In this document: piece by piece, positions 1 through 32,000 of the stretch
Layout: each line of letters begins with the position of its first letter
Position numbering within the stretch: position 1 is the stretch's first letter
From: Candidatus Saccharimonadota bacterium
GTDB lineage: Archaea; Nanohalarchaeota; Nanosalinia; Nanosalinales; Nanosalinaceae
DNA: 32,000 nt
Direction of reading: 5' to 3'
Assembly (NCBI RefSeq): GCF_029232205.1
Contig: NZ_CP107255.1
Coordinates: 450,001 to 482,000 of the forward strand
Notes under the pieces: generated by a model
Databases searched by the model: none
What the model saw: the letters and a program-made list of their open reading frames with translations, nothing else
Told to the model about the DNA's origin: nothing
Made by a program: the position numbers and the translations under genes

Positions 1-1839
1 ATGGAGGAGAACCCAGGCCTCAGCAAGGAAATGATGGACTCTCTGCTTGCAGATGTCTACGTGGACGATAACGTAATAGCAGAAATGGAGGCAGAGGACT
101 CGCTTGAGGATAAAATGGGCAAGTTCACAGCAGGCTGGAAACACCTCTCAGATTTCTACGGAATCGAAGGCCTTGTAGGTGGCGACGCTGAAGAAATCAA
201 TCCTTTCCTGAACGGAGACGACGCATCAATGGTTGCAGGAGGCCTTGACAGCCTTGAAACAGTGCTTCCAGCTCTGAGAGAAAACATGGGTGAGGAAGAG
301 TGGACGAAGTCTGCTTTAAGGCTCTCTTCGATTGTGGAAAGAGAGCATGGGCAGATTGATGAGGCTGTGGATATGCTGGAAGAGATACATGGCGTCGGAG
401 ACTACGATCAGGAATTTCTAGATAATTCCGCTCAGGTTCTCGAAGATCTTGCTAACTCAAGATTCGAAACCAATTCCGAGCACGGCAAGTTCTACAACAC
501 ATTCATCAGATTCCATAACTGGATGCCATTGAAACTGAAGGAAGATGGCAGAGAAGGAGACCAGTACGACAGTCTCTGTGCGCCTACAGGAGATGGAATG
601 GATAAAATTAAGGATAGATCTGTTCACGCAGATCTCGATGAGATAGGAGACGCCGACAGCCCGAAAGGCCTTGCACTTTCCTGGCTTCTTGACGAGGGAA
701 TAGAGGTCGACGGAGAAACACTCGGCGACAGAGAAGAATTCCAGGACTCAGTTGATGAATGGGAACAGAGAATTAACGAAGAATTAAGCGAAGGCCGCGA
801 AGAATACGCAGAATTCACAATGGACGACCCGGCGATGTACTCCGGACTGGTAGGAGGAAAATGGAAAGGCCTCAAACTGCTTGACGACGCAAAAGAGGCT
901 CTTGACCTCGGCTATGATATAGCTGATGGAAAAGTGGTTTCCTCGGTTGGCGTTGAACAGATGCTGGAAGAAGCCGGCGTACAGGAATTAATTGAACAGG
1001 ACGTCTTTGAAATGGGAGAAGACAGAAGACAGGAGATCGTCGACAGAATCGATGATGTAGATGTCAGCGAGTACGTAGATGACGTAGAAGGCGGCACTAT
1101 TGCCCGTTCCAGTATGTACGGAGAGGATGGAGCCTCGAACTTCGCTGGAACATACGAATCGTTCCATGCAGATGGCTCTCCGGGCCAGGCAGTTAAAGAC
1201 GTAGTTAAAAGCTACTTCTCCGAGAAAGCAGTCAACGCTAGAGAAGACAAAGGCATGACGCACAACGGAGGCATCAGCGTAATCCTTCAGGACGCGATAG
1301 AACACGAAAGAGGAGGTGTAGTGCATCTTACTGATGAAAGCTATTCGATCAGCGAGGCCGAAGACGCCGAGAAAGCTGTAGAAGGAGAAGGCGAGACACA
1401 TACAGCAGAAACAGTGGAAGGCCTGGTAGAGGGCACTGCTATGGAAGGAATGGCACATGATCTTGAAGAACTCCATGAAACCTTCGGCGACATCGATCTA
1501 GAGTACGTAGCAGAAGGCGACGAAGTATACCTTACACAGATGAGGCCTAAACATAGAGCAGTGGATGGTGAAAGGCCTGACTTTGACTCAATGAGTACAG
1601 TACAGCTGGACTCTTTCGAGGATATGTACGAGGCCGAGCTTGATGGAGAAGCACCTTACGTGGTCAGAATGGACTTCCTCGGCCGCGACAATATTATGGA
1701 TAGGGAAAGAGAGATAGAAGAGTTCCTGCGTGAGAATCAGGATAAGATCGGTGGAGTAGAAGGCCACATGCCGGCACCGGCCCACATTCCGAACAATATC
1801 GAAGGCCACTTCAGAATACCTTACAGAGAGGCCTCATAG
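1..1839 (+). CDS. hypothetical, extremely acidic soluble protein (612 aa; may be 5'-truncated at the window edge)
   Basis: Long ORF open from base 1. Its D/E-rich composition matches the other credible genes. Antisense ORFs are S/T/P-rich shadows. I recognise no catalytic motif. Confidence 0.6.
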   Translation: MEENPGLSKEMMDSLLADVYVDDNVIAEMEAEDSLEDKMGKFTAGWKHLSDFYGIEGLVGGDAEEINPFLNGDDASMVAGGLDSLETVLPALRENMGEEEWTKSALRLSSIVEREHGQIDEAVDMLEEIHGVGDYDQEFLDNSAQVLEDLANSRFETNSEHGKFYNTFIRFHNWMPLKLKEDGREGDQYDSLCAPTGDGMDKIKDRSVHADLDEIGDADSPKGLALSWLLDEGIEVDGETLGDREEFQDSVDEWEQRINEELSEGREEYAEFTMDDPAMYSGLVGGKWKGLKLLDDAKEALDLGYDIADGKVVSSVGVEQMLEEAGVQELIEQDVFEMGEDRRQEIVDRIDDVDVSEYVDDVEGGTIARSSMYGEDGASNFAGTYESFHADGSPGQAVKDVVKSYFSEKAVNAREDKGMTHNGGISVILQDAIEHERGGVVHLTDESYSISEAEDAEKAVEGEGETHTAETVEGLVEGTAMEGMAHDLEELHETFGDIDLEYVAEGDEVYLTQMRPKHRAVDGERPDFDSMSTVQLDSFEDMYEAELDGEAPYVVRMDFLGRDNIMDREREIEEFLRENQDKIGGVEGHMPAPAHIPNNIEGHFRIPYREAS

Positions 1840-1848
1840 AAGGATAAT

Positions 1849-2262
1849 CTACCCTTCTGGTTTCTTTTTTACGAATTTCTCTGCGTCTTCTTCGGCGAAT
1901 TCTTTGTTTGAGTATCCGTACATCGGTGTGTCGATCTCTGAACCGAATTTTTCAGAATTAATCGTCCAGAATCCGTTGTCTTTCTTCTCCAGTGATACTT
2001 CGGCCCCGGTCTTGGAATGCTTCCAGGTATCTCCTTCACGGTTCCATTCTCCGACGTCACGCAGATCTTTGCAGTAAGAGGAATAACGACGGTTTCCGGG
2101 TTTGCATACTAGAAGTGCATCTTCCTCCTGGTATATTTCGTATTCTCCTCCTGAAGGCCCTGCAATAAGTACTCTGTCGTCCTCTACTTTTTCGACTGTG
2201 AGAGGAGTCTTTCTTTCGTTGAAAAGTATTTTCTGGCCTTCCTCAAGTTCGCTGTACTTCAT
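1849..2262 (-). CDS. hypothetical protein (137 aa, MKYSELEEGQ...)
   Basis: The track ORF 1849..2427 is trimmed to the internal ATG at 2262. The upstream part is low-complexity and overlaps the divergent promoter. A TATA-like TTTTATA (complement of 2291..2297) lies about 30 nt upstream of 2262. No recognisable domain. Confidence 0.5.
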   Translation of the reverse strand: MKYSELEEGQKILFNERKTPLTVEKVEDDRVLIAGPSGGEYEIYQEEDALLVCKPGNRRYSSYCKDLRDVGEWNREGDTWKHSKTGAEVSLEKKDNGFWTINSEKFGSEIDTPMYGYSNKEFAEEDAEKFVKKKPEG

Positions 2263-2365
2263 CTTTGTAGTATTCGAAGAGGTTCTGAGGTATAAAAGAG
2301 GTGGGAGTTTGTTGCAGACATAGATAATCCAAAGATTTATATATTTGCTATTGTTAAGTAACAAC

Positions 2366-3724: not shown

Positions 3725-3736
3725 TTGCTTCTGATT

Positions 3737-5695: not shown

Positions 5696-5719
5696 GTTTG
5701 AACTTACACTCTTCCAGAA

Positions 5720-5727
5720 TTATAAAT
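5720..5727. promoter_or_regulatory. central TATA element (TTATAAAT) shared by divergent copB and the PadR/TRASH regulator
   Basis: This is the only strong AT-rich element in the 53-nt spacer. Its centre is about 25 nt from ATG 5749 and about 29 nt from GTG 5695. Confidence 0.5.
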
Positions 5728-5748
5728 GTGTCAACATATGATATAGTT

Positions 5749-6144: not shown

Positions 6145-6166
6145 ATTTAGCTACCTAATTCCTATT

Positions 6167-6703: not shown

Positions 6704-6726
6704 CCGGTAAAGCACACCTCTAAACT

Positions 6727-9252: not shown

Positions 9253-9588
9253 ATGTCAAATCCAATAGACCATGATCACAGACAGGCCGCTAAAGAATAC
9301 AGAGAGGCCTCCGGAGGAAAAGGAGAGAAATTCAGGGACTGGCAGGCACAGGTAGAAGACGAAACCAGCTTTGATGACAAAACCAGAGAGCTCATGATGC
9401 TGGCCGTAGCCTCCGCACTACAGTGCAAGTTCTGCGTTAGCGCACATAGTAAAAAAGCGATAAGACATGGAGCATCCAGGGAAGAAGTAGCAGACGCAGT
9501 ACAGATTGCTTCAGAAGTCAGAGCAGCATCCACAATGGCCTACGGAATGGACGCATACCAGAACTTTGACGACTTCGATGAAGAATAA
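9253..9588 (+). CDS. carboxymuconolactone decarboxylase / AhpD-like family protein
   Basis: It carries the CxxCxxxH motif (LQCKFCVSAHSK) in a small helical protein of typical CMD size. The flanking helices are conserved (TRELMMLAVASAL). Confidence 0.75.
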   Translation: MSNPIDHDHRQAAKEYREASGGKGEKFRDWQAQVEDETSFDDKTRELMMLAVASALQCKFCVSAHSKKAIRHGASREEVADAVQIASEVRAASTMAYGMDAYQNFDDFDEE

Positions 9589-9603: not shown

Positions 9604-9619
9604 GAGGCCTTAAGGCCTC
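9604..9619. terminator. perfect 16-nt palindrome GAGGCCTTAAGGCCTC between convergent genes, flanked by T-runs on both strands
   Basis: Read directly from the sequence. It lies 16 nt after the stop at 9588 and 10 nt before the stop at 9629. ATTTTT follows on the + strand and TTATTTTTT on the - strand. Confidence 0.45.
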
Positions 9620-9628
9620 ACAAATTTT

Positions 9629-11053
9629 TCACCTGTTTTCTCTTTCCCATTTTCTTGCGGCTTCGTGGAAGATATGGAATCCTGCAAGCCCGATAATCAG
9701 TGAGAATGATAGGAAACCGATAGATACTACTGCAGGCGCCAGGTGGTACAGTAGGCCTGCTACGAACATCGGCACAAGCACTGCGCCGGCGCTGAACATG
9801 AAGATTGTGAACTTCCATGCATCGAACAGCATCTCGTTAGGCTCAAGGCCTGAAAGATAAGCTGTCACGCCCACAAGGTAGACGGATATTGATGGGAGGC
9901 TGAGTGCTCCTACGATAGCGCCGTCAGCTCCGTAAATATAGGTGTTTGCTGCGATGAATGCCCAGGCTACAGGTACTGAGACAGTTAGGTAGAGGCTGAG
10001 CTTTGCATCAAACACTTCGTGCATTTCAACAGGGAACTTGGTGTATGTGGAAGGCCTGTCATTCAACGTAATCCAGTTATACGTGGAGAGCGAGGCAATT
10101 GAAAGAATCAGCGCGACTACAAGACCTGGTGCTGCTGTTCCTGCTGTCAGGAACGGGATCTGTGACATCATGAATACATAGAATGCGTAGATCAGGCCGA
10201 ACGAGAAGAAAATCTTGATTACTCCTCCGCTACTCCTAAGAAGCTGGATAACAGATTTGGAGACAATTCCTGTCTTGTCGTATCCAAGTAGATCATGCAC
10301 TTCATGGAACTTGTCCTCGCTGGTACGCGACTTTCTACCGCTGGAAGGCCTGAAAATTGCCACGCTGTAGAGAGCCAGTAATGAAAATGGAAGGAATCCT
10401 GTAATGAAGCTGGAGATCCCTGGATTTGAGAAGAATCCAAGAGGGGTCAACTCCATAAGGCCCATGCTAGAGTAGTAGATTGCTCCTGCAAGAGGAATGC
10501 TGAATCCAAGAAGGTAGTTCACGCCAAGATTGTAGAGCGAGGCGAATGCCAGACTCATTGAAACTCCCAGCATAAACATTCCGGAACCTGCAACCCAGGC
10601 CATCAACACTTTCGAAACTGCATAGGATGTGAAGTAGTTGACTGATAGAAGGCCTAGAGTCAGTGGTGCTACGAAAAGTGCTGAGTAGTACAGTAAATCC
10701 TTGAGTATGAATACTGAGACAATCTTTCTCTGCTGGATTGGCAGGGTTCTTGAGGAATATATCAGAAGATTGTTCTCTCCTATCAAGTTCTCGGCTCTAT
10801 CCCGGCTGATGAACCCTATTGAGCCGACGTTGAGACCCAGGAAGAACAACAAGGCAAGTATTCCATACTCTATCTGGCCTACAGTAAATCCTGTGTAGAA
10901 AGATGAGGCCACTAGAAATGCTGAGGCCGCGAGGACTACAAGAGGGAATAATGCGAAGTTTCTGCCTCCGAAAAGTTCGGAGTGCATTCTCCACTCTTCT
11001 TTAATCATTTCTCTGAGCAGACTCAAATCCTTCCACCTCTTCAAGGAACTCAT
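9629..11053 (-). CDS. polytopic membrane protein, probable permease partner of the adjacent ABC ATPase
   Basis: About 12 hydrophobic segments, directly downstream of and overlapping the ATPase gene. ATG 11053 gives a 53-nt overlap. The alternative ATG 11008 gives an 8-nt overlap. Confidence 0.6.
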   Translation of the reverse strand: MSSLKRWKDLSLLREMIKEEWRMHSELFGGRNFALFPLVVLAASAFLVASSFYTGFTVGQIEYGILALLFFLGLNVGSIGFISRDRAENLIGENNLLIYSSRTLPIQQRKIVSVFILKDLLYYSALFVAPLTLGLLSVNYFTSYAVSKVLMAWVAGSGMFMLGVSMSLAFASLYNLGVNYLLGFSIPLAGAIYYSSMGLMELTPLGFFSNPGISSFITGFLPFSLLALYSVAIFRPSSGRKSRTSEDKFHEVHDLLGYDKTGIVSKSVIQLLRSSGGVIKIFFSFGLIYAFYVFMMSQIPFLTAGTAAPGLVVALILSIASLSTYNWITLNDRPSTYTKFPVEMHEVFDAKLSLYLTVSVPVAWAFIAANTYIYGADGAIVGALSLPSISVYLVGVTAYLSGLEPNEMLFDAWKFTIFMFSAGAVLVPMFVAGLLYHLAPAVVSIGFLSFSLIIGLAGFHIFHEAARKWERENR

Positions 11054-12495: not shown

Positions 12496-12569
12496 GGGCT
12501 CTTAGTTCAGCCTGGCGGAACGCTTCCTTGGCAGGGAAGAGGCCGTGGGTTCAAATCCCACAGAGTCCA
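12496..12569 (+). tRNA. tRNA-Ala (anticodon GGC), no encoded CCA
   Basis: Hand-folded cloverleaf: acceptor GGGCTCT/AGAGTCC with the G3:U70 alanine identity pair; D stem GTTC/GAAC; anticodon stem CTTCC/GGAAG with loop TTGGCAG; T arm GTGGG-TTCAAAT-CCCAC; discriminator A. TTTATAA lies about 35 nt upstream. Confidence 0.9.
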
Positions 12570-12616
12570 CTACCATCAATTTTCTGAGAAGGCCCTGTTT
12601 TCTTCATATGCAAAGA

Positions 12617-12874
12617 TTACAGTATTCCGGTCTTTATCCCTGTGTAGGCCTTTACTACAATCTCTTTCAGTACTCTCGTGCTCTGAATATTCATCAGGTA
12701 AACTGCAGCAGCCAGTACGTGCAGAGATATTAGGTAGGTAGCCAGACTGTGAAGGGTGCCGCTTGTTCTCTGTACTATAATACTAATGAGTGCAGAAGCT
12801 ATGTGGATCTGTATAAATGCTGCAGCAAATTTTTCTACACCTGAGCTCTGACCCATGTAGGACTCTCGAGACAT
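12617..12874 (-). CDS. possible small hydrophobic protein (85 aa); uncertain
   Basis: This is the only sizeable ORF in a ~410-nt stretch next to the tRNA. It has two hydrophobic segments but is not acidic, and I recognise no motif. Confidence 0.3.
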   Translation of the reverse strand: MSRESYMGQSSGVEKFAAAFIQIHIASALISIIVQRTSGTLHSLATYLISLHVLAAAVYLMNIQSTRVLKEIVVKAYTGIKTGIL

Positions 12875-14607: not shown

Positions 14608-14826
14608 ATGGATCTAGTTAGTTTTGTAGCAGGAGTTTTCGTAGGAATTGTTGCCGGTATCGGTGGCGCGTTGTTCTATTTGAGATGGAAGATGCGTCAG
14701 CAGCTTGGAATGATGGAAGATCAGATGAGTGACTTGATGGATTCCACGCAGGCAATGACTGAAGGCCTCGGAGATCTTGAAGATATTGAAGAGGTCGAGA
14801 ATAAAGAAGAGGAAAATACGGATTAA
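14608..14826 (+). CDS. small single-pass membrane protein with an acidic C-terminal tail (72 aa)
   Basis: One N-terminal TM (VSFVAGVFVGIVAGIGGALFYL) is followed by a D/E-rich tail. TTTTTTATTTAT at 14577..14588 is centred about 25 nt upstream of the ATG. Confidence 0.5.
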   Translation: MDLVSFVAGVFVGIVAGIGGALFYLRWKMRQQLGMMEDQMSDLMDSTQAMTEGLGDLEDIEEVENKEEENTD

Positions 14827-14835
14827 ATTTCCTTC

Positions 14836-15075
14836 TTATTTTTCTTCGTAGAGCTCGTAGCCGAAGTAGATCTGATACAGTCCGGCAAGGCCTACAAGAA
14901 GATAGATAGCGGCTTCAACCTGTCCTCCGGCAACTCCGCCGAAGATAAGGTTTACAACGTTGTATGCTTCTCGTCCTTCTCCGGAAAGCATTCCCAGGCC
15001 TACTAATCCCCAGTTCAATGCACCGATTACTACAAGGCCTAGAGTCGACCAGTCAAGGTATTTTACATCTGCCAT
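14836..15075 (-). CDS. DUF378-family small membrane protein
   Basis: The sequence LDWSTLGLVVIGALNWGLVGL and a second G-rich TM match the DUF378 signature (ALNWGLVG) as I recall it. Confidence 0.7.
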   Translation of the reverse strand: MADVKYLDWSTLGLVVIGALNWGLVGLGMLSGEGREAYNVVNLIFGGVAGGQVEAAIYLLVGLAGLYQIYFGYELYEEK

Positions 15076-15131
15076 TTACAGTTCACTTAACCACTTTTAC
15101 TGCTCTGAGGATTTTATAGTTTGGGCCTGTT

Positions 15132-15494
15132 TTACTGCTTTTTCTCCAGTTTTTCGGCTGTTCTCTCCATTTCGTTGGAGATGCTTCTAAGCTGGTCGAT
15201 GAAGGCCTCGCTTCTGGCAGAGTATTCTTCCTCTATTTCAAGGTCTCTAAGTGCTGATCTGAGATGTGCTTCCTTGATTTTTGCCATCATATCGCCTTCT
15301 TTCAGAGTTTTTTCGGTTATTTCGTCTAGCATTCTGGATAGAACACAGTTGATTACGTGAGGTACGTCGCCGTCAAGGGTCTGTTCCTCATCCATTCCTT
15401 CCCGAATAATTCTTCTGATTCTTCCCTCGGAAAGAGCAAGATCATCGTTTTCAAGCTGGCCATAATTGTCCGGAATAAGCTTCTCAAGGTTCAT
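15132..15494 (-). CDS. histone-fold protein with an N-terminal extension and a ~35-aa C-terminal helical extension
   Basis: By-eye alignment to archaeal HMfB. RIRRIIRE aligns with PIGRIIKD (alpha1). VPHVINCVLSRMLDEITEKTLKEGDMMA aligns with ARITLAKILEEMGRDIASEAIKLARHAG (alpha2, same length and hydrophobic register). KIKEAHLRSALRDL aligns with KTIKAEDIELAVRRF (L2-alpha3). The C-terminal EIEEEYSARSEAFIDQLRSISNEMERTAEKLEKKQ looks coiled-coil. Start trimmed to ATG 15494. Confidence 0.45.
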   Translation of the reverse strand: MNLEKLIPDNYGQLENDDLALSEGRIRRIIREGMDEEQTLDGDVPHVINCVLSRMLDEITEKTLKEGDMMAKIKEAHLRSALRDLEIEEEYSARSEAFIDQLRSISNEMERTAEKLEKKQ

Positions 15495-15582
15495 AATAAG
15501 GAATATATGCTGCACAAACTACAAAAAATCACTTGGTCCACTGCCGAAATCCACTAAAATTATCAACACCAATCTTTAACCT

Positions 15583-16587
15583 ATGAGAATCAAGGCCCGC
15601 ACCATCCGGTTTTTACTCGCAGTTTTCCTGACAGCTCTCCTGATTCCTGGAGTAGCAGGAGAAACAGTTTTCGAAGACAGAGTTACAGTAAATTCCAACT
15701 CCAGCATGACAGTTTTCGCACAGGACGTAACTGTAGAAAACGTAAACGGCAGCCTAACAGTATTCACACAGAACCTCGATATTGAAGGCCCTGTAACCGG
15801 CAACGTAAAGGCCTACGCACAGAATGTCAATATCTACTCTACTATAGGAGGAGATGCCGAATTTTATACTCAGAGCTTTTCTTTGAAAGATACTGGCCAG
15901 GTTAATGGCACGCTAACTGTGGCTGCGGAAAATACACATCTGAATGGATGGATTAACGATGCAAGAGTTGAATCTGAAAATCTTGTAGTTGACTCTGGCG
16001 CACAGATCAGTGGAACACTACGTTACAGGGCCGAAAGGTTCGAGCAACAGACAAATGTAACCGGCCAGATAGTTGAAGCCCCGAGAGATATAGATCTAGT
16101 TAATACAGCCGATATAGCTAGTGAGGCCGTAATGGAGACTGCAGAGTTCCTGATAAGGATCTTTGCAGGCCTTCTGCTTATTGCTTTCGCGCCAAGATAT
16201 TCGCAGAAGATCAGTGAAGCCTTCCGGTCAAGAACTGCGGCCTCAGGATTCCTTGGATTAATGGCTGCGATTCTTCTTCCTGCCGCGACATTCATCCTTG
16301 CACTGACGATTGTAGGACTCCCTCTAGCAGCAATAACAGGTCTGCTGTTCCTGATTCTTTACCTGTTGGGAACTTTCTACGGGCCTTACAGCCTCCTGAA
16401 GAATGTTGTGGGGACTGAGGAGAGAGGCCATGATTACGCGGCAATGGTTCTGGGAGTTGTCCTCTGGACCTTGCTTGATGCGCTTCCGCTGCTTGGAGAT
16501 ATAGCCCAGTTAGTGATTGCGGTGATAGGTATAGGCGCCTTTATTCTTCCTGGCTGGGAGGGCATGGGTCGAAGGATAAGAAGATAA
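15583..16587 (+). CDS. membrane protein with an extracytoplasmic bactofilin-like beta-helix repeat region and a C-terminal multi-TM domain
   Basis: A signal/anchor (FLLAVFLTALLIPGVAG) is followed by ~18-20-aa periodic repeats (VFAQDVTVENVNGSLT / VFTQNLDIEGPVTGNVK / AYAQNVNIYSTIGGDAE / FYTQSFSLKDTGQVNGTLT ...). About 4 hydrophobic helices follow. Confidence 0.5.
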   Translation: MRIKARTIRFLLAVFLTALLIPGVAGETVFEDRVTVNSNSSMTVFAQDVTVENVNGSLTVFTQNLDIEGPVTGNVKAYAQNVNIYSTIGGDAEFYTQSFSLKDTGQVNGTLTVAAENTHLNGWINDARVESENLVVDSGAQISGTLRYRAERFEQQTNVTGQIVEAPRDIDLVNTADIASEAVMETAEFLIRIFAGLLLIAFAPRYSQKISEAFRSRTAASGFLGLMAAILLPAATFILALTIVGLPLAAITGLLFLILYLLGTFYGPYSLLKNVVGTEERGHDYAAMVLGVVLWTLLDALPLLGDIAQLVIAVIGIGAFILPGWEGMGRRIRR

Positions 16588-16612
16588 ATGCCTCCAACTC
16601 CAAAGAACTTGC

Positions 16613-17143
16613 ATGGAGAAAGTGTTTTTCCTCAGGCATTTCCAGACAGAGGTAGATCCGGATACCCCGGTCTCTGAATGGAATCTTTCAGAAGAAGGCC
16701 TTGAAGAAATGGAGGAGTTTATGCAGGGCGATCTTCCGCAAGTTGAGGCAATTCTAACTAGTCCGGAACCAAAGGCCCAGAACACTGCTGAAAGACTTTT
16801 AGAGCAGATCGGCGAAGAGGTTGTTCCTCTTGAAGAACTTAGAGAGGTTGATAGATCTCGCAGAGGGTTTATCGAAAAACATCATAAGTATGTGGAGACT
16901 GCAAAAGAGTATCTGCAGAACGATTATCCAAAAACGGCCTGGGAACCTAAATCAGAGGTCAAAAGAAGAATCAGAGAATTTATACAGAGAATGGAGGGTA
17001 TGGGCTATGACAGAGTTCTTGTAGTGGGCCATGGCCTGTACTTCAGCATCATGCTTGGTGAGGAGCCTTATTATTTCTGGAGAGAGCTTGAGTTTGGAGA
17101 GTTAATCGAAAAAGATTTCGAGGAATTGCAGCAGTTTAAATAA
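16613..17143 (+). CDS. histidine phosphatase (phosphoglycerate mutase-like) superfamily protein
   Basis: N-terminal FFLRHFQTE (RHG-type catalytic motif variant) and distal VLVVGHG (second catalytic His). The size is typical of SixA/PGM-like small phosphatases. Confidence 0.65.
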   Translation: MEKVFFLRHFQTEVDPDTPVSEWNLSEEGLEEMEEFMQGDLPQVEAILTSPEPKAQNTAERLLEQIGEEVVPLEELREVDRSRRGFIEKHHKYVETAKEYLQNDYPKTAWEPKSEVKRRIREFIQRMEGMGYDRVLVVGHGLYFSIMLGEEPYYFWRELEFGELIEKDFEELQQFK

Positions 17144-17157
17144 TCTTCAGATTTCTT

Positions 17158-18291
17158 TTGTTTCCTGTGAAGAAGAAAATCCAGATAGATGATCGAGAGA
17201 TCACAGTGATAGGAACAGCACATGTATCCCAGGAGAGCAAGGAAGAGGTCAAAAATACTATTGAAGAGGTCAGGCCCGACACTGTATGCGTTGAACTGGA
17301 TGAGAATAGGTTGAAATCTCTCAGAGAGGAGTCGGGATGGCGAGAGCTCGATGTAACAGAGGCCATCAGAAACGGTGATGGAAAACTTCTCTTGATGAAC
17401 CTGGTCCTATCAATATATCAGAAACAGATGGGCCTGGAACAGGACATGAAACCGGGAGAAGAACTTCTACAGGCCATTGATACAGCTGAAGAGAAAGGCC
17501 TTAACTATGCTCTAGTAGATCAGGATATCAATATTACATTGAATAGAGCAATGAGCTCGCTTGGCATCTGGGACAAAATAAAACTGATGGCCTCGCTCAT
17601 GGTTTCCTCAGAGGAAATGAGTGTAGAAGAACTGAAAGAAGACAACCTGATCAACGCTCTTGTCGATGAACTTGACGAAGAATTCCCTCAGCTATCCAGA
17701 GTATTCCTGCACGAAAGAAACACGTACATGGCAGAAAAAATACTTGAACAGGACTTTGAAAAGGCCGTTGTAGTTGTAGGAGCAGCACATATGAAAGGCC
17801 TGATAGAAGAACTTGAGAAAGAAAAGAGAGATACCGATTTCCCTGATGTAGAAGGCTTTCCGTGGATGAAAGCTGTAAGCTACGGCATTCCGGCGTTTAT
17901 ACTATTGGGCCTTGGCTACAGTTTCTTCCAGATAGGTTTTTCCACTGGAATTAACGCTACAAAGTTCTGGATTCTGAGTAATGGCATTCTTGCCATGCTT
18001 GGTGCTATAATTGCGCGTTCACATGTTTCTACCTGGATTGTTTCTTTCCTGGCCGCACCTCTAACATCGCTGGATCCTGCGCTCGGTGCTGGAATGGTTG
18101 CTTCGTATGCAGAGGCCAAGCTTCACCCACCTACAGTTGAGGAGCTGGAATCGATCACTGAAGTTACACGTTACAGAGATCTCTGGGGTAATCAGGTTGG
18201 CCGCATCCTGCTTACATTCGGTTTTGTAACGATCGGCAGTGCACTGGCCACGTTTGTCTCAGCAGGGTATATCGCCTCGCTTATTGGGTGA
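17158..18291 (+). CDS. TraB/PrgY/TIKI-like family protein with a C-terminal 4-5 TM domain
   Basis: ITVIGTAHVSQES...VCVELDENR and a second GxxH (VVVGAAHMKGL) match the paired GxxH/E motifs of the TraB/TIKI fold. The start is uncertain (TTG 17158 or GTG 17167; no nearby ATG). Confidence 0.75.
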   Translation: MFPVKKKIQIDDREITVIGTAHVSQESKEEVKNTIEEVRPDTVCVELDENRLKSLREESGWRELDVTEAIRNGDGKLLLMNLVLSIYQKQMGLEQDMKPGEELLQAIDTAEEKGLNYALVDQDINITLNRAMSSLGIWDKIKLMASLMVSSEEMSVEELKEDNLINALVDELDEEFPQLSRVFLHERNTYMAEKILEQDFEKAVVVVGAAHMKGLIEELEKEKRDTDFPDVEGFPWMKAVSYGIPAFILLGLGYSFFQIGFSTGINATKFWILSNGILAMLGAIIARSHVSTWIVSFLAAPLTSLDPALGAGMVASYAEAKLHPPTVEELESITEVTRYRDLWGNQVGRILLTFGFVTIGSALATFVSAGYIASLIG

Positions 18292-18851: not shown

Positions 18852-19478
18852 CTACATCATCCATTTTTCTTCCCATCTTCTAATCCTATCTCTCCACTCC
18901 TCTTCTTCTAGATCATTTTCAGAATCTTCCTGCGCCCGTTCCTCACTATTCCTAAGGTACAGGCCTACAGCAGCACCTGCAAACATTCCAAAAAGATGAG
19001 CCTCGTACGCCACATTGTTCTCCGCCCCAAGACCTAGCAAATTCAACGCAATATAGCCCAAAAGCACAACCCACATCGGCGCTGGAACACCAAAAACAAG
19101 ACCGATCTTGTTAGGCCTGTAAACAGCCAGCGCTGCCAGAATTCCAACTGCACCACCAGAGGCCCCGATAATAACCGAGTTAGGGAAGAAAATAAAGGCC
19201 GTAAGATTTCCAACCAGTGCAGAAATAAGGAAGGTTCCCATCAAAGTTTTTTCATCAGTCATCAACTCATAGATGCTGCCAAATAGAGCGATAAAGAAAA
19301 TATTGTTGAACAAGTGCTCAGGCCCTGAATGGCCTAGGAAGGATGTGAAGAACTTCCACAAAGGAGATACGCCGGCCTGAAATCCTGGCTGCCAACCGTA
19401 AACTGTCTGACCTAGAAATACCAGTGCAAGAAAGAACGAAAAAATCAAGGCCGTGAATCTGAACTGTCTGTCTTTCAT
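18852..19478 (-). CDS. rhomboid-family intramembrane serine protease
   Basis: EHLFNN (H..N), GASGG catalytic serine motif (IIGASGGAVGILAA) and AHLFGMFAG catalytic His, in a ~6-TM protein. Confidence 0.85.
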   Translation of the reverse strand: MKDRQFRFTALIFSFFLALVFLGQTVYGWQPGFQAGVSPLWKFFTSFLGHSGPEHLFNNIFFIALFGSIYELMTDEKTLMGTFLISALVGNLTAFIFFPNSVIIGASGGAVGILAALAVYRPNKIGLVFGVPAPMWVVLLGYIALNLLGLGAENNVAYEAHLFGMFAGAAVGLYLRNSEERAQEDSENDLEEEEWRDRIRRWEEKWMM

Positions 19479-20083
19479 TGTACTGGTTCTGCGAGCACCC
19501 AGAAATGGGTTTCCTCTCGGTAATCCTCGGTGTAGGTTGTTATTATTTCGAATCCGGCCTTTTCAAGCAGTTCGACATTCTTTTCAGCGGAGTAAGAGCT
19601 CCATACCATTTCCTGGCCTCCGATCTCTCCCTCAAAATCATCCATCTCATCAGGGCCTAGAGTGATTAAAATAGCTCCCTCATCACTAATCCATTCTCTA
19701 ATCTTCTTGAAGAGATCAAAATGCTCTTCACGCGGAATATGGAAGATAGCATAAAAGCTGACTACTGCATCAAAAGAATTTTCCCCGAAATCATTTTCAA
19801 AGAAGTCTCCCTGCAGAAAATCAGCTTCAGGAACATTTTCACGCGCCATCTCTACATGTTTCTCAGAGATGTCAACGCCTGTGACTTGATGATCTTTCTC
19901 TACAAGAAAACGGTCGAAAGGAAGGCCTGTACCACATCCAAGATCCAGAATCTTGGACTCTGAAGGAATACCGTCAAAAAGGCTCTCCATCAGCTCTCTT
20001 TCCTTCTCTCTGACCTCTCGGCCTTCGCGATAATCGCCTTCATAGTCGCCCTTGTCGTAGCCTTCCTTTACCTTGTCTCTCAT
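19475..20083 (-). CDS. class I SAM-dependent methyltransferase
   Basis: Motif I ILDLGCGTGLP, followed by VTGVDISE and an acidic loop (DAVVSFYAIFH). ATGA overlaps at both ends (20080-20083 and 19475-19478). Confidence 0.8.
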   Translation of the reverse strand: MRDKVKEGYDKGDYEGDYREGREVREKERELMESLFDGIPSESKILDLGCGTGLPFDRFLVEKDHQVTGVDISEKHVEMARENVPEADFLQGDFFENDFGENSFDAVVSFYAIFHIPREEHFDLFKKIREWISDEGAILITLGPDEMDDFEGEIGGQEMVWSSYSAEKNVELLEKAGFEIITTYTEDYREETHFWVLAEPVQ

Positions 20084-21684
20084 TCCTCTAGCTGCCTCAA
20101 AATTTCAGCAGTATCCTCTACCCCGATTGACATGATCAGTCGGGAAAGTCGAGGCCCCTGCTCACGTGAAAGAAGGGTTTTGTAGGCTGCAGTGAAGAAC
20201 TCGCCGGTTCCCAGCGCCGAATCCTCTTTAACATCGAAGATCTTACCGTCAAGATCATCCTGATCCTTGAAATCAGTGGATTCCAGCTTATCAGCAAGCA
20301 GAACCATGGCCTCCTTCTCATCCTCGCTTAGATTATCTCTTATCTCGTGTGTGATTTCTTTATTGATCTCATAGACATAGTCTTCTGGAGCGTAGTCGCG
20401 AGCCCAGTTCTTCGCTCTTTCAAGTCTTTCCAGCACTCTCTCCGCATTTCTCTCGGAGATATCCTCTGGAATATGGCCTGTACGTTTCAAGGATTCAAGG
20501 CCTTTCTCCTCCCACTCTTCTTCAGGTACTGTCTGCGCGATGAAGGCTGCGTGCTGGAAAGGAACTCTTACAGGCTGTTCTTCAGGAATATCGACCATTG
20601 CAATCTCGTAAACTCTCTTCCAGTGTTCTCTCTTTCTATCGTTCTCGACTTCTTCAGGATTGAAGTAAGCGTTCTCAACCTTGTCGAAGTTATCATATCT
20701 TTGGAAGATGTCTTCTGACTGGAAAGGAATCTCGAAGGCCTTGCTTGGCTTCGTATTGGAGAACAGGAATCTGATGATCTCCGGAGAATAAACCTCTTTC
20801 AGTGTGGAAACCGTAAATACGTTTTCTCCTGATGAGGAGGAGATCTTGGCGCCATCTTTTGTAACAAATTCGTACATCTGGTGGACAGGTACATGGCCGT
20901 CAAATACTTCCTGAACAATCTCGTTAGCGGTGTCTCTTGATCCTCCTGAGGCTGAGTGCTCTTTACCAGCAGGCTCAAAGTCAACTCCTTCGTATTTCCA
21001 TCTCATAGGCCAGTCAACTCTCCATGGTGGCTTAACATTTCCTTTCTCCTTGAAGTTAAGCTCTCTTTCCTCTTCACATTCCTCACAGTAGTAGGTAACG
21101 GTGTATTCCCCGTCGTAATCTCGTACTTCTGTGAAGTCTTTCTCACATTCTGTACAGTAAACTCTCAGAGGATAGTAAGGTTCTTCGAGAGGTTCTCTTC
21201 GGTATTTGTCAAGTATTTCTTTGATTTTATCACGGTGCTGAAGGCCTTTCTTGATTAGATCGGCGTACTCTGCTCTCTCAAACATTTCGCTCTGTCTGAT
21301 GAACTCAATGTCCATATGCATTCCTTCAAGCTCTTCCTCAAGTCGAGACTCGAAGTGATCTGCGTAACTGTCGTGGCAGCCCTCTGGGTCTGGTACCTTG
21401 CTGAGTGGAAGGCCTAAGTACTGTTCGAAGTCGTCAGGTACGTTGGCTGGAACCTTTCTGAAACGATCGTAGTCGTCCCATGAGTAAATGAATCGGACGT
21501 TTTCCCCATAGTTCTTCAGTGACTTGACAACGAAGTCTGTAGTAATTATTTCACGGAAGTTACCTGCGTGCACGAGGCCTGAAGGAGAAATTCCCGATGC
21601 ACACACATATTCTTCCTGATCTTCAAATTTTTTCCTGACTCCGAAAGCCAGTTGATCGCTCCAAAATAGCGGTTGATCACTCAC
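20080..21684 (-). CDS. lysK: lysine--tRNA ligase, class I (archaeal type)
   Basis: ASGISPSGLVHAGNFRE (HIGH-like HAGN), a KMSKS-like GAKISSSSGE, and the overall length and order of class I LysRS. The start is GTG at 21684. Confidence 0.9.
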   Translation of the reverse strand: MSDQPLFWSDQLAFGVRKKFEDQEEYVCASGISPSGLVHAGNFREIITTDFVVKSLKNYGENVRFIYSWDDYDRFRKVPANVPDDFEQYLGLPLSKVPDPEGCHDSYADHFESRLEEELEGMHMDIEFIRQSEMFERAEYADLIKKGLQHRDKIKEILDKYRREPLEEPYYPLRVYCTECEKDFTEVRDYDGEYTVTYYCEECEEERELNFKEKGNVKPPWRVDWPMRWKYEGVDFEPAGKEHSASGGSRDTANEIVQEVFDGHVPVHQMYEFVTKDGAKISSSSGENVFTVSTLKEVYSPEIIRFLFSNTKPSKAFEIPFQSEDIFQRYDNFDKVENAYFNPEEVENDRKREHWKRVYEIAMVDIPEEQPVRVPFQHAAFIAQTVPEEEWEEKGLESLKRTGHIPEDISERNAERVLERLERAKNWARDYAPEDYVYEINKEITHEIRDNLSEDEKEAMVLLADKLESTDFKDQDDLDGKIFDVKEDSALGTGEFFTAAYKTLLSREQGPRLSRLIMSIGVEDTAEILRQLEE

Positions 21685-21758: not shown

Positions 21759-21780
21759 GAAGGCCTTTTATCTACAGAAT

Positions 21781-23456: not shown

Positions 23457-23470
23457 AAAACTCATTTACT

Positions 23471-24871
23471 TTACTCTTCTTTCTCAAAGGCCTTCTTCAC
23501 ATCCTCTTCAACTTTCTCAACTTCCTCCTCAATCTCCCTTTCTTCTTTCTCAACATCTCGTTCGATCTCCTCAACCTCCTCTTCAATCTCATCTCTCTCA
23601 AAATAAAAGAACTCGGCAACGAATACAACCGCAAAAATACCTCCAATGTAGTACAGCATATGCTGATTAGTCCTGAAAAGATGCACAATCAACAGTACAA
23701 GTGCAGATAAAGACCCGAGCAAGCCAAAGGCCGGCACCCAGCCATTATTCCTTGATTCTCTATCCTTCAGACAGATGAAGTTCACAATGGCAAATATGCT
23801 GATGAAGGCCACAGATGCGAAGGTTGTAACTTCTTCAAGAGAGCCCAGAAAAGTAAATAATGCAGTAAGGCCTCCAACCACGGCAATGCTATGGGTGGGT
23901 ACTCCCTTCGAGTTTCGGAATGAGAAAAGATCTGGTAGTTCGTTGTCACTTGCAATCCTGTAAGTCAGACGTGAAGTACCGAACAAGGTGGCGTTGATAG
24001 CTGACGCAGTGGAGAAAAGAGCCGCAACTGAAACAAGTAGTACGCTGCCTGTCTGCAGGAAGTAATTATGGAAAATCTGGGAGGAGGCAAAGGCCAGAGC
24101 AGTCTCTTTATGAACAGCAATCTGCTCAGCAGTCATCAAGTTGGTAGTAACAAGAGCAACAAGAACATAGATCAAAGTAGAGGCAATAACCGAGATATAG
24201 GCCGCTTTCTTCAGCGTATCGTGGCCTCCTTCAATCTCGGAATACTCGTAGGTAAGCAACTGAAAACCCTCAAAAGAAACAAAAATAGCTCCAACAGCAA
24301 AGATCGGTGATAGAAATCCGTGCTGCAAAACACCTTCCGCGAAAAACGTCAGCTCAGGCCTCTGAAAAATCATGTACAGCCCGGAGATGGAGAAAAGGCC
24401 TAGGATACAGATCTTGGCATATACAAGCAGATCTTCTGAACTGCCAGCCTTCGAAGGACCCAGAAAGTTAACAAGCACAAACAATCCGATAATTCCAACA
24501 GATAGAACAGGCCTCAAAAGTTCTGAAGTAAAGGGAAGAGCGTTAGCGGCAAATGAACCAAAAGCATAGGAGTACATGGCCATAGTCCCGATATATCCAA
24601 CTACAAGAATCCAGCCAACCATTCCAGCGATATTCTTATTGTCAACGTAATGCTCGAGAAAAGTAAAAGATCCTCCTTCATCCTCAAGGTGCGATGTCAT
24701 GTTAACATACGAGTAAGCAGATGCTAGGGCCACAAAACCAGCCAAAAGATACGCAATAAAGGCAGCATCACCTGCAATCGAGGCCGCAACACCAAGTGCC
24801 GCGAAAATACCACCGCCAATAATTCCTCCGATACCCATCGCAACTGATTCCTTAAGACCCAGATCGCTCAT
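23471..24871 (-). CDS. APC-superfamily amino acid/polyamine transporter with an acidic repetitive C-terminal tail
   Basis: About 12 TM. The N-terminal GIGGIIGGGIFAALG motif is typical of APC permeases. The C-terminal ~45 aa is E/V/I/K repeats (EIEEEVEEIERDVEKEEREIEEEVEKVEEDV). Confidence 0.8.
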   Translation of the reverse strand: MSDLGLKESVAMGIGGIIGGGIFAALGVAASIAGDAAFIAYLLAGFVALASAYSYVNMTSHLEDEGGSFTFLEHYVDNKNIAGMVGWILVVGYIGTMAMYSYAFGSFAANALPFTSELLRPVLSVGIIGLFVLVNFLGPSKAGSSEDLLVYAKICILGLFSISGLYMIFQRPELTFFAEGVLQHGFLSPIFAVGAIFVSFEGFQLLTYEYSEIEGGHDTLKKAAYISVIASTLIYVLVALVTTNLMTAEQIAVHKETALAFASSQIFHNYFLQTGSVLLVSVAALFSTASAINATLFGTSRLTYRIASDNELPDLFSFRNSKGVPTHSIAVVGGLTALFTFLGSLEEVTTFASVAFISIFAIVNFICLKDRESRNNGWVPAFGLLGSLSALVLLIVHLFRTNQHMLYYIGGIFAVVFVAEFFYFERDEIEEEVEEIERDVEKEEREIEEEVEKVEEDVKKAFEKEE

Positions 24872-24944
24872 AAAAACAAAAGAGAACTCTCTAGAACTTA
24901 AACTCTTCCAAACCTATTTGTAACTTTAACCGGCTTCAATCAGT

Positions 24945-25250: not shown

Positions 25251-25274
25251 TGAACAAATCTCTGTGATCCCAGG

Positions 25275-26345: not shown

Positions 26346-26388
26346 AGTGCCAAAGACTTGATAAGTTTCTCACCCCAAACTTGATTAG

Positions 26389-27108: not shown

Positions 27109-27116
27109 ATAATACT

Positions 27117-28307: not shown

Positions 28308-28313
28308 AGACCG

Positions 28314-30721: not shown

Positions 30722-30783
30722 ACAGGGACAGATTAGCTTGAATTTAAAAGTCTAATAATCTGAATTCAGATAGGTAGAACAAT

Positions 30784-31449: not shown

Positions 31450-31458
31450 AATAACATT

Positions 31459-31566
31459 ATGGTTGACAGATCATGCTGGAACTGCGGCACCACAATGACA
31501 AAATACGTAGCATGCGAACTTAAATGCATGAACTGTGGCCTAATAAGAGACTGCAGCGACCCTTAA
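31459..31566 (+). CDS. unlisted 35-aa zinc-ribbon micro-protein (MVDRSCWNCGTTMTKYVACELKCMNCGLIRDCSDP)
   Basis: Hand translation. It has two CxxCG knuckles (CWNCG, CMNCG) 13 residues apart. It starts 9 nt after the uppS stop, on the same strand. Confidence 0.5.
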   Translation: MVDRSCWNCGTTMTKYVACELKCMNCGLIRDCSDP

Positions 31567-31811
31567 AAAACAAATACTTCTCTATTTACTCCTCAATAAC
31601 TCTCTGCTTTGCACATCTATTACAGAGACCTAACATAGTTTTTCTACTGCAACCTTCAGCACAGCACTCGTTAAACACCAGAAAAAGATTTACACAAGAA
31701 TATTTAACCTAATCGAACACGAAAAACCGTTGTTATCCTTCGGGAGTTAATCAAAGGCCTCTTATCTGAATAATTAGAGACTTAAAAACTGAAGACAAGT
31801 TTATTCATAAA

Positions 31812-32000
31812 ATGGCCATTTCAAAGATAGAAATCGCTTTCACCTCCGCAATAATTCTCGCGGCATCTCTTGCATTTCTGGGACTAACACAGAAACCCAA
31901 GTTCGGAGTAGCCGACAGAGGAGACTGGAAAACAGCAAACCAGCAAAACGTAACCGTACAGACAGAGGCCTGGATCCAGAACCCGAGCAGAGTAACAGTA
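31812..32000 (+). CDS. N-terminal part of a membrane-anchored protein (runs off the window); possibly LEA_2/WHy-like
   Basis: The ATG at 31812 has TTAAAAA about 26 nt upstream. A TM anchor (IAFTSAIILAASLAFLGL) is followed by VTVQTEAWIQNPS, reminiscent of the NPN strand of LEA_2 proteins. The frame is open to base 32000. Confidence 0.45.
   Translation, partial: MAISKIEIAFTSAIILAASLAFLGLTQKPKFGVADRGDWKTANQQNVTVQTEAWIQNPSRVTV

Follow-up and report, generated by a model that had tools for sequence, protein, structure and literature searches.

Extreme over-representation of the palindrome AGGCCT in a nanohaloarchaeal genome segment, with a tentative explanation by a HIP-like molecular drive

Introduction

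What makes a palindrome of only six bases accumulate to about three copies per kilobase in an archaeal genome? This question is raised by a 32-kb stretch of DNA (the window) belonging to the genome of Candidatus Nanohalovita haloferacivicina BNXNv, a DPANN archaeon in culture that lives as an ectosymbiont of Haloferax. A preliminary description of the window had claimed massive over-representation of the hexamer AGGCCT and considered either a drive by very-short-patch (VSP)-type T:G repair or selection of a recognition motif throughout the genome. Hyper-abundant palindromes, termed HIPs, have been known from cyanobacteria for thirty years without agreement on their origin or function. In Escherichia coli, VSP repair by the Dcm/Vsr system enriches CCWGG-related words, with partial sites affected hierarchically. 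The uptake sequences of Neisseria (DUS) and Pasteurellaceae (USS), bacteria with known uptake machinery, are non-palindromic, comprise 9-12 nt, occur about once per kb and are shared by whole families.

Besides the 32 kb from the window genome, about 20 kb per relative were examined in a survey of ~65 nanohaloarchaeal loci. No prior report of AGGCCT enrichment in nanohaloarchaea was found in the searchable literature.

Results

Abundance of AGGCCT in the window

The window has a GC content of 45.4% and contains exactly 95 AGGCCT sites (2.97 per kb or 2,970 per Mb), making this the top-ranking hexamer by count. The sites start at positions 15, 168, 240, 666, 867, 1419, 1543, 1573, 1829, 2530, 2867, 4500, 4761, 4827, 5281, 5490, 5863, 6020, 6229, 6476, 6503, 6753, 7099, 7333, 7460, 7578, 8048, 8336, 8653, 8717, 9305, 9605, 9613, 9753, 9846, 10052, 10346, 10650, 11204, 11285, 11666, 11695, 12646, 13022, 13133, 14763, 14888, 14996, 15035, 15203, 15809, 16167, 16696, 17496, 17796, 18961, 19113, 19923, 20498, 20736, 21242, 21410, 21575, 21761, 22048, 22150, 22576, 22788, 22957, 23488, 23868, 24356, 24396, 24509, 25386, 25742, 26161, 27890, 28277, 28436, 28667, 29033, 29291, 29303, 29372, 29453, 30140, 30238, 30508, 30685, 30851, 30958, 31187, 31755 and 31966. 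The preliminary description had estimated about 95 sites, and every coordinate it listed matches; its expectation of about 6 sites at a GC content near 45% agrees with the order 0 value of 6.3 (observed/expected ratio, O/E, of 15). At order 1, 8.7 sites are expected, so that the claimed massive over-representation still amounts to about 11-fold, and 100 dinucleotide-preserving shuffles of the window gave a mean of 9.0 and a maximum of 17 sites, none of them reaching 95.

With higher Markov orders the expectation rises to 25.9 (order 2), 54.7 (order 3) and, at the maximal order 4, 94.7, calculated as AGGCC × GGCCT / GGCC (174 × 141 / 259). The preliminary description had proposed such a maximal-order comparison and would have taken a ratio near 1 as refutation. 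The ratio is indeed 1.00, but this is not a refutation because the signal resides in the conditioning words AGGCC, GGCCT and GGCC; all that follows from the test is that, once GGCC is given, A at the 5′ end and T at the 3′ end occur independently of each other. When synonymous codons were permuted inside each gene, retaining the protein and the per-gene codon usage, 300 shuffles resulted in 16.6 ± 3.7 sites (maximum 28) versus 86 observed in coding DNA, an about fivefold excess. Furthermore, relatives of similar GC content lacking the enrichment (n = 18) show 0.25 sites per kb versus 2.97 per kb in the window.

Location of the sites

In the 5′-truncated ORF at 1..1839 (+), encoding a PPDK_N-like domain, nine sites occupy all three codon phases as previously described, with six in phase 2, two in phase 0 and one in phase 1 as calculated from the coordinates. 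Over the whole window, 49 sites were assigned to xxA-GGC-CTx, 18 to xAG-GCC-Txx and 17 to AGG-CCT, in a count that took the four sites at 14763-15035 as intergenic, whereas these lie inside two small ORFs. Genes of both strands bear the motif. The class I lysyl-tRNA synthetase gene lysS (20080..21684, −; TIGR00467, E = 1.9e-151) has sites at 20498, 20736, 21242, 21410 and 21575, and the gene for an APC-family amino-acid permease (PotE; 23471..24871, −), BNXNv_0526 in the published genome description (PMC10266531), at 23488, 23868, 24356, 24396 and 24509. Five sites were confirmed as intergenic, among them the four for which this had been claimed before (9605, 9613, 21761 and 31755). The first two form a 14-bp perfect palindrome, AGGCCTTAAGGCCT (9605..9618), in the gap between the convergent genes at 9253-9588 (+) and 9629-11053 (−). 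The site at 12646..12651 is located downstream of tRNA-Ala(GGC) (12496-12570), that at 21761..21766 between the divergent lysS (−) and an M50 peptidase gene (+), and the one at 31755..31760 is likewise intergenic. Intergenic density is similar to that in coding DNA, and spacing is Poisson-like (coefficient of variation 0.96), hence random and not regular. In line with the earlier claim that an extended flanking consensus is lacking, relative entropy does not exceed 0.13 bits at any flanking position. The signal thus acts on DNA and not on protein level, as previously proposed, since it appears in all phases, on both strands and at similar intergenic density, and exceeds the codon-shuffle null fivefold.

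Half of the sites represent Gly-Leu junctions, and GGC and CTT are common codons, so that the abundance might be suspected to follow from codon usage, preferred dipeptides or base composition, or from copies of a dispersed repeat or mobile element. However, GGC usage is 71% before Leu and 27% elsewhere, AGG usage is 95% before Pro and 13% elsewhere, and 17 of the 22 Arg-Pro pairs in the window are encoded by AGG-CCT. Together with the shuffle result, the intergenic density and the existence of relatives having the same proteins and GC content but not the motif, this means that AGGCCT abundance is not a by-product of protein coding or base composition. Repeats of the REP or MITE type would show conservation past the core and alignable copies, while the flanks are not conserved here. 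These alternatives are refuted by the codon-shuffle, codon-context and flank data and retain practically no probability.

Saturation of silent sites and related words

Where five motif bases are fixed by the protein, the silent sixth base completes AGGCCT in 75-97% of cases in enriched lineages versus about 20% in relatives. Thus, Ala in xAG-GCN-Txx is encoded by GCC at 94-97% versus 21% in non-enriched relatives, Gly in xxA-GGN-CTN by GGC at 75-91% versus 20%, and the four-fold degenerate base preceding GGC-CTN is A at 90-97% versus 32-57%. These values imply odds ratios of ~20-90 at each motif position. Saturation of 75-97% is reached also where the common starting codon requires a transversion (GGA to GGC, GCA to GCC, C/T to A before GGC-CTN), and the force is equally strong whichever of the six positions or types of substitution is considered.

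Among one-off variants, those deviating at outer positions are 1.8- to 4.4-fold enriched while those deviating at inner positions are at 0.73- to 1.14-fold. The words AGGCCG, AGGCCA and AGGCCC, already described as frequent, occur 29, 26 and 24 times in the window versus 4.6, 8.8 and 5.7 expected. Transversion neighbours of AGGCCT are as depleted as transition neighbours. Depletion of the deamination products AGGTCT and AGACCT, for which the preliminary description had suggested a test, is present (15 versus 23 expected in the window) but weak and non-specific. In enriched compared with non-enriched genomes, GGTC/GACC is the most depleted among 136 tetramer classes (0.64), but every GGTN word is low (0.64-0.84).

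These data bear on classical VSP repair, in which an m5C methyltransferase specific for GGCC or AGGCCT and a Vsr- or Mig-like T:G endonuclease or glycosylase would turn GGTC into GGCC. The marked depletion of GGTC/GACC, resulting from deamination of the inner cytosine, the deficit of AGGTCT plus AGACCT and the hierarchical enrichment of partial sites are all compatible with such a process. A transition-only bias, however, would cap a silent position at about 50% if the usual alternatives are A or G, and the depletion extends to all GGTN words and equally to transversion neighbours. Enrichment is therefore not achieved solely via T:G to C:G transitions at a methylated cytosine; since transversion-requiring silent positions are 75-97% saturated, VSP-type T:G repair alone cannot explain AGGCCT. 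As sole cause it is refuted by the silent-site spectra, and the earlier proposal fails as a whole explanation; we accord it a very small probability.

Distribution among nanohaloarchaea

In the ~65 loci, enrichment is patchy, with at least five separate groups at 9- to 20-fold, interleaved on the tree with non-enriched close relatives at about 1-fold. Highest values in related loci are 5,150 sites per Mb (19.8-fold), i.e., up to 5 sites per kb. Besides BNXNv, M3_22, SG9 and VS9-1 count among the enriched genomes, and SVXNc and Candidatus Nanohaloarchaeum antarcticus among the non-enriched ones. Stringency also differs by lineage, from a strict hexamer in loci L010 and L019 via an intermediate state in the SG9/VS9-1 clade to the window lineage, where the GGCC core is favoured without the flanks and GGC reaches 64% in B-GGN-CV contexts. 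Judged from these sequences, the varying stringency behaves like the specificity of a DNA-binding protein.

Between the window and M3_22, 36-60% of AGGCCT sites are shared versus 21% for average hexamers. For polarising gains and losses, M3_22 is too diverged (76% nucleotide identity) and, for this reason, the substitution spectrum is uninformative. The Logan contig L081 is identical to the window except for one indel and hence provides no polymorphism, and the metagenome scan revealed no closer strain, the best LysRS identity being 87-88%. Viral contigs scanned for clustered AGGCCT mostly gave tandem repeats and chance clusters. In other nanohaloarchaea, GGCC is strongly avoided (5 versus 60 expected in L008, 3 versus 21 in L216); in the window, AGGCCT is opposite in sign to restriction-site avoidance. 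The Nanohalococcus occultus locus shows no AGGCCT enrichment, and the cytosine methyltransferase of this species was discarded as a seed for searches, as the examined strain is without that insertion.

Effects on proteins

Gly-Leu and Arg-Pro dipeptides are raised, whereas the reverse-order controls are not. LysRS served both as phylogenetic marker and for testing convergent gains. In enriched lineages, lysS bears 3-8 AGGCCT sites per gene versus a mean of 0.31 in 29 non-enriched ones, and independent clades have gained the motif at identical alignment columns, with parallel amino-acid replacements such as KAM to KGL and TKD to RPK. To create AGGCCT, a force acting at the DNA level has changed silent positions of codons and even amino acids.

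A force overriding the amino-acid sequence of a conserved enzyme could be natural selection acting directly on AGGCCT as a site of binding or recognition throughout the genome. Some abundant protein would then have to find a site every few hundred bases, for instance to organise or segregate chromosomes, to mark self DNA or to control end resection in a Chi-like manner, and selection on each site would hold the density. Equal force at six positions and for all substitution types, conservation of AGGCCT positions above that of average hexamers and a lineage-specific stringency reminiscent of protein binding all fit. On the other hand, the odds ratios translate into effective selection with Ne*s of ~3-4.5 on each of roughly 3,000 sites per 1-Mb genome, and this in an obligate ectosymbiont, for which strong drift is probable. 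Close relatives manage without AGGCCT altogether; the supposed function is therefore dispensable, with at least five origins or losses required. In addition, spacing is random and no candidate protein was identified. We regard direct selection as unlikely but more probable than the other alternatives to the reading favoured below.

Search for a methyltransferase or Vsr gene

Comparison of all window ORFs with Pfam, NCBIfam and PADLOC revealed no DNA-modification gene, i.e., no DNA methyltransferase, Vsr or mismatch glycosylase. Scanning six-frame ORFs of the ~65 loci, representing ~2-4% of each genome, for motifs of m5C and N4/N6 methyltransferases and of Vsr resulted in a single match, in L218, to a type IIG Eco57I/MmeI-like ORF; an enzyme of this kind would not be directed at palindromes. 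In the published description of BNXNv, a type III Mod/Res pair is the one system mentioned (PMC10266531). A small SAM methyltransferase encoded beside lysS (19475-20083) matches PADLOC mad2 but was rejected as AGGCCT recogniser because, by PDB and NCBIfam comparison, it is a class I enzyme of small-molecule type, and because it is missing next to lysS in many enriched loci while present in a non-enriched one. It adjoins lysS in five loci only, four of them enriched and the fifth being the non-enriched L034.

An AGGCCT restriction-modification system of StuI type with AgGCcT methylation, identical in recognition sequence to the palindrome studied here, is documented for Alcanivorax borkumensis SK2 (PMC12128166), which shows that AGGCCT-specific methyltransferases exist and are mobile. 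By calculation, the 1,674 AGGCCT sites of that genome are about twice the composition expectation, which is ordinary and not hyper-abundant. Avoidance of GGCC in L008 and L216, the Alcanivorax system and the methyltransferases accompanying HIPs form a context that supports a recogniser of the restriction-modification type.

Discussion

Among known systems, AGGCCT most resembles the cyanobacterial HIPs, i.e., HIP1 (GCGATCGC) and the alternate HIPs GCsGC, rCCGGy and GGCGCC (Elhai, 2015, PMC4390886; Xu et al., 2018, PMC5861425). These, too, are GC-rich palindromes of a few bases whose frequency, ~0.3-2.7 per kb or more, is tens-fold above expectation; they lie in genes and in non-coding DNA without regard to frame, do not belong to a longer repeat, and are present, absent or replaced in a lineage-specific manner. 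A density of hundreds to thousands per Mb with an O/E in the tens, as is characteristic of HIPs, is found in the 32 kb analysed, and as with HIP1 (Elhai, PMC4390886) one-off variants are concentrated at the outermost positions. For both, drive versus selection is under debate. AGGCCT differs from HIP1 in sequence, in having six instead of eight bases and in occurring in DPANN archaea instead of cyanobacteria. It is denser than HIPs (3-5 per kb) and much patchier, being on or off between near relatives, and its spacing is random whereas HIP1 is reported to be quasi-periodic. A cognate methyltransferase accompanies each of the alternate HIPs (PMC4390886), while none was found for AGGCCT in the sampled loci.

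Our favoured, albeit tentative, reading is a HIP-like molecular drive, that is, biased repair tied to a horizontally mobile protein recognising AGGCCT or GGCC, probably a methyltransferase. A sequence-specific DNA-binding enzyme would recognise AGGCCT, being strict for the GGCC core and more or less stringent, depending on the lineage, for A and T at the outer positions, and would bias the resolution of replication or recombination mismatches. Most probably, this would be a cytosine methyltransferase of the StuI/HaeIII specificity class, either orphan or associated with restriction. Changes creating a site would tend to stay, while those destroying a methylated site would tend to revert, a ratchet proposed by Elhai for cyanobacterial HIPs (PMC4390886). 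With time, all positions left free by protein function would move to the motif and weakly constrained amino acids would follow; a determinant that is horizontally mobile or often lost could give rise to the patchy distribution among Nanohaloarchaeota. Against this reading stand the lack of DNA methyltransferase and Vsr genes, except for the type IIG ORF of L218, in the window and the portion of each genome scanned, and the fact that Elhai's ratchet is itself unproven and predicts saturation at about one site per kb, versus 3-5 here. No part of the sequence evidence tells direct selection on AGGCCT apart from a drive through repair or recombination.

The Dcm/Vsr system is alike in that methyltransferase-linked, sequence-specific mismatch correction inflates the methylase's own and partial sites. 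In E. coli, however, the effect is small and restricted to T-to-C or A-to-G changes, compared with 10- to 20-fold and including transversions for AGGCCT, and Dcm/Vsr genes were found neither in the window nor in the nanohaloarchaeal loci examined, which cover ~2-4% of each genome.

A drive biased by uptake or recombination, of the DUS/USS kind, would spread AGGCCT without benefit to the cell if conspecific DNA bearing the motif were preferentially taken up or recombined. DUS and USS are likewise abundant in genes in all frames, alter peptides and show a graded core-and-flank hierarchy; the inverted pair between convergent genes (9605-9618) and the proposed uptake of environmental DNA by nanohaloarchaea (PMC10266531) would suit this idea, and host DNA at ~65% GC would hold about tenfold fewer sites, as estimated from base composition alone. 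Known uptake sequences are, however, longer, asymmetric, found about once per kb and clade-wide, in contrast to a 6-bp palindrome at 3-5 per kb that is on or off between near relatives, and only a single terminator-like pair is seen in the window. We therefore consider this explanation improbable. Similarly doubtful is a functional role of AGGCCT as a 'self' tag, by which a DNA-scavenging ectosymbiont might separate its own or conspecific DNA from the GC-rich DNA of its host, a haloarchaeon. If true, motif-dense DNA would be taken up, recombined or spared and the remainder degraded as a source of nucleotides, horizontal transfer would carry the determinant from one nanohaloarchaeal lineage to another, and Archaea would have their first described signal system of the uptake or Chi type.

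AGGCCT represents a HIP-type phenomenon that has appeared independently in another domain of life and is stronger per kilobase. The patchy distribution is a natural experiment: carriers and non-carriers of the motif alternate among near relatives in the phylogeny, and a simple comparison of complete genomes for gene presence and absence should lead to the gene responsible. Moreover, BNXNv is in stable co-culture with Haloferax, so that its methylation can feasibly be mapped and assays of restriction, uptake or repair be carried out. In these small genomes, a non-coding force has altered the usage of codons, the frequency of dipeptides and single residues of housekeeping proteins, which affects phylogenetics, codon-based inference and binning by k-mer signatures for DPANN archaea.

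Abundance and Placement of AGGCCT Sites

With exactly 95 sites, AGGCCT is the top-ranking hexamer of the window (GC content 45.4%), and on recount the positions given in the preliminary description were matched exactly. Base composition predicts 6.3 and a first-order Markov model 8.7 sites, while 100 dinucleotide-preserving shuffles gave 9.0 ± 3.0 (maximum 17). At higher Markov orders, the expectation rises to 25.9 (order 2), 54.7 (order 3) and 94.7 (order 4), the last value resulting from AGGCC × GGCCT/GGCC (174 × 141/259). The preliminary description had regarded a Markov ratio near 1 as refuting over-representation. The order-4 ratio is 1.00, yet the enrichment stands, because GGCC (259 versus 73 expected) and both pentamers are themselves inflated; the ratio shows no more than that, given GGCC, the outer A and the outer T are independent of each other. 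That the excess is an artefact of coding or composition has a practically negligible probability, as permuting synonymous codons inside each gene, thus keeping protein and per-gene codon usage, resulted in 16.6 ± 3.7 sites (300 trials, maximum 28) versus 86 real sites in coding DNA.

As described before, genes of either strand and intergenic DNA contain sites. All three codon phases are used over the window (49 xxA-GGC-CTx, 18 xAG-GCC-Txx and 17 AGG-CCT), and density is alike inside and outside coding DNA. Of the sites, five or six are genuinely intergenic (9605, 9613, 12646, 21761, and 31755), and four others, initially scored as such, sit inside small membrane-protein ORFs at 14608–14826 (+) and about 14835–15077 (–), both encoding less than 85 aa and hence under the usual ORF cut-off. 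Spacing is near-Poisson (coefficient of variation 0.96). With at most 0.13 bits of information at any flanking position, the repeated unit is the hexamer alone rather than part of a longer repeat, in line with the lack of an extended consensus already noticed. One fused pair forms the perfect 14-bp palindrome AGGCCTTAAGGCCT (9605–9618) between convergent genes, which may represent a terminator-like hairpin. Codon choice is strongly context-dependent, with GGC used for 71% of Gly before Leu versus 27% elsewhere, AGG for 95% of Arg before Pro versus 13% elsewhere, and AGG-CCT in 17 of 22 Arg-Pro pairs.

By its class I lysyl-tRNA synthetase (LysRS) and other genes, the window belongs to the Nanohaloarchaeota. 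Its amino-acid permease (23471–24871) shows 100% identity to a protein of Candidatus Nanohalovita haloferacivicina, namely strain BNXNv, which is cultivated as an ectosymbiont of Haloferax lucentense (PMC10266531). The other genes serve ordinary housekeeping and transport functions, and no DNA methyltransferase, Vsr or restriction enzyme is found among them. The 127-aa product of 15132–15515 (–) matches the histone fold at borderline level (PF00808, E = 3e-4). Between lysS, the LysRS gene, and a rhomboid gene, a 202-aa class I SAM methyltransferase is encoded (19475–20083, –). Despite a match to PADLOC mad2 (E = 1e-20), it is similar to methyltransferases acting on small molecules. Its lysS-adjacent homologue occurs only in the enriched loci L001, L027, and L028 and in L034, which is not enriched; the otherwise identical Logan contig L081 lacks one base pair of the gene (window position 19935).

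Distribution Among Relatives

For comparison, about 65 nanohaloarchaeal lysS-centered loci from genomes and metagenomes were sampled, covering about 2–4% of each genome. In enriched loci, AGGCCT reaches 9–20 times expectation at 2.4–5.2 sites per kb. Within the window's own clade, L203 is enriched and L001 (strain M3_22, CP046106) more weakly so (4.9-fold). Enrichment is also found in L207/L208; in L010, L210, L211, L213, and L218; in L019; and in L025 (Nanosalina VS9-1, CP180230), L026, L027 (SG9, CP012986), L028, and L223. The remaining loci are near onefold. Ca. Nanohalococcus occultus is likewise not enriched (1 site versus 4.2 expected), and Ca. Nanohaloarchaeum antarcticus also belongs to the non-enriched set. 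In the LysRS tree, at least five enriched groups are interleaved with non-enriched near relatives (L221 by L025, L215 by L019, and L206/L209 by L207), a number that is approximate since the tree is a neighbor-joining tree of a single protein. The window and M3_22, at 76% nucleotide identity, have 18 sites in common out of 50 window and 30 M3_22 sites; background hexamer conservation is 21%. Direct selection for AGGCCT as a binding motif is rather unlikely, as it would require strong effective selection on each of about 3,000 sites of a symbiont, while near relatives are entirely devoid of the motif.

In two loci the pattern is reversed, with GGCC avoided in L008 (5 versus 60 expected) and L216 (3 versus 21 expected), a pattern classically left by GGCC-specific restriction.

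Silent-Site Saturation and Specificity

Enriched and non-enriched loci were pooled for evaluating silent positions at which the other five motif bases are fixed by the protein. Ala in xAG-GCN-Txx is encoded by the completing GCC in 94–97% of cases in enriched clades versus 21% in non-enriched ones, Gly in xxA-GGN-CTN by GGC in 75–91 versus 20%, and the four-fold base preceding GGC-CTN is A in 90–97 versus 32–57%, implying odds ratios of roughly 20–90 at each motif position. Transversions are needed for much of this shift, since GGA and GCA are the commonest alternatives and the outer A takes the place of C or T. Very-short-patch (VSP) repair, proposed in the preliminary description as a possible drive, is therefore insufficient by itself and very improbable as sole cause, since correcting T:G mismatches to C:G cannot bring the completing base beyond about half at a silent position with four states. 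The depletion of deamination products predicted there is present but weak, with GGTC/GACC being lowest among the 136 tetramer classes (0.64), but it is not specific, as GGTN words are low without exception and transversion neighbors are depleted about equally.

Specificity varies between lineages. In L010 and L019, the full hexamer alone is favored, half-sites are at baseline and unflanked GGCC is, if anything, avoided, while the SG9/VS9-1 clade moderately favors half-sites. The window's lineage favors the GGCC core even without either flank (GGC 64% there versus about 21%), which accounts for the abundance of AGGCCV and BGGCCT words, i.e., the frequent one-off relatives noted earlier. One-off variants are enriched exclusively at the outer positions (1.8- to 4.4-fold), those at the inner four being at 0.73- to 1.14-fold, the same restriction to outer positions as described by Elhai for cyanobacterial HIP1 (PMC4390886).

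The motif also affects proteins. Enriched clades have more Gly-Leu, Arg-Pro, and [KEQ]-Ala-[FLSYCW], with no such rise in the reverse-order controls, and an observed/expected ratio for Arg-Pro of 1.2–1.5 in these clades versus 0.64. In the LysRS codon alignment, enriched lineages have 3–8 sites per gene, and 29 non-enriched lineages average 0.31. Independent clades gained AGGCCT at identical columns, sometimes via residue replacement, such as at columns 443 (KAM to KGL, two clades), 828 (TKD to RPK) and 1193 (KAI to KGL).

Other Palindromes and Restriction-Modification Genes

A second, weaker over-representation in the window concerns GTAC (100 versus 52 expected), which is also raised in L025 (75 versus 35.5). 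GTACAGG/CCTGTAC occurs 15 times versus 1.8 expected and CTGTACAG at four sites; examples of GTAC-containing words are at 979, 7006, 7447, 8901, 13215, 18957, 26446, and 27513. In lineages not enriched in AGGCCT, other palindromes are moderately over-represented, such as ACCGGT (L002, 17 versus 2.3; L023, 8 versus 1.1; L031, 9 versus 1.2). CCGG is about twofold in many loci, GATATC reaches 23 versus 4.1 in L009 and GTATAC 12 versus 2.1 in L011. These four excesses may be weaker alternate iterated palindromes. As reported for haloarchaea, CTAG is 4- to 10-fold under-represented in many nanohaloarchaeal loci (e.g., L003, L009, L017, L019, and L036). Avoided are also GATC and AATT in L004 and L024, TGCA in L082, and CGCG in L001. 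Three unrelated IMG/VR viral contigs show a dispersed AGGCCT excess, namely L084 (36% GC, 13 versus 1.2), L165 (52%, 22 versus 4.5), and L190 (65%, 24 versus 4.5); the word repeated in L084 exceeds the hexamer in length (TTAAGGCC...).

The enriched metagenomic nanohaloarchaeal contig L218 encodes a type IIG restriction-modification enzyme (15428–17725, +; HSDR_N and Eco57I/MmeI-like N6 methylase), cut by the locus end. The published SVXNc gene list has a DNA cytosine methyltransferase between the genes for stomatin and pyruvate kinase (SVXNc_0487). This methyltransferase is missing from Ca. Nanohalococcus occultus CP180231.1 (L082, 8355–8504) and thus is a strain-specific insertion.

Discussion

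The data call for a recognizer with protein-like, lineage-variable AGGCCT specificity, a fixing step effective for any substitution type and a determinant often gained or lost. AGGCCT belongs to the standard targets of type II systems, and one system recognizing it, with AgGCcT methylation, is known from Alcanivorax borkumensis (PMC12128166). Restriction directed at GGCC is evidently in circulation within the phylum, given that L008 and L216 avoid this word. In cyanobacteria, each alternate highly iterated palindrome (HIP) is accompanied by a cognate methyltransferase (PMC4390886). Our analysis tentatively favors a HIP-type, methyltransferase-linked drive as best fit. Following Elhai's proposal (PMC4390886), methylation would misdirect mismatch repair so that errors creating a site are kept and errors destroying a site are reversed. 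We consider this possible rather than probable, because no AGGCCT/GGCC methyltransferase gene was found in the sampled loci (2–4% of each genome), the published BNXNv description names a type III system only (PMC10266531), and the density predicted by Elhai's model is below the one seen here. A drive by biased uptake or recombination, of the kind known from uptake sequences (DUS/USS), has some appeal given the DNA scavenging proposed for nanohaloarchaea (PMC10266531); for a motif that is short, palindromic and patchily distributed, however, it is quite unlikely.

Full-text searches of open-access papers and preprints gave no report linking AGGCCT to nanohaloarchaea, nor one describing HIPs in organisms other than cyanobacteria. 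AGGCCT is a HIP-like palindrome that differs in sequence and domain of life and has an unusually patchy distribution. As a carrier is cultivated and relatives with and without the enrichment exist, both the gene responsible and the mechanism can be tested directly.
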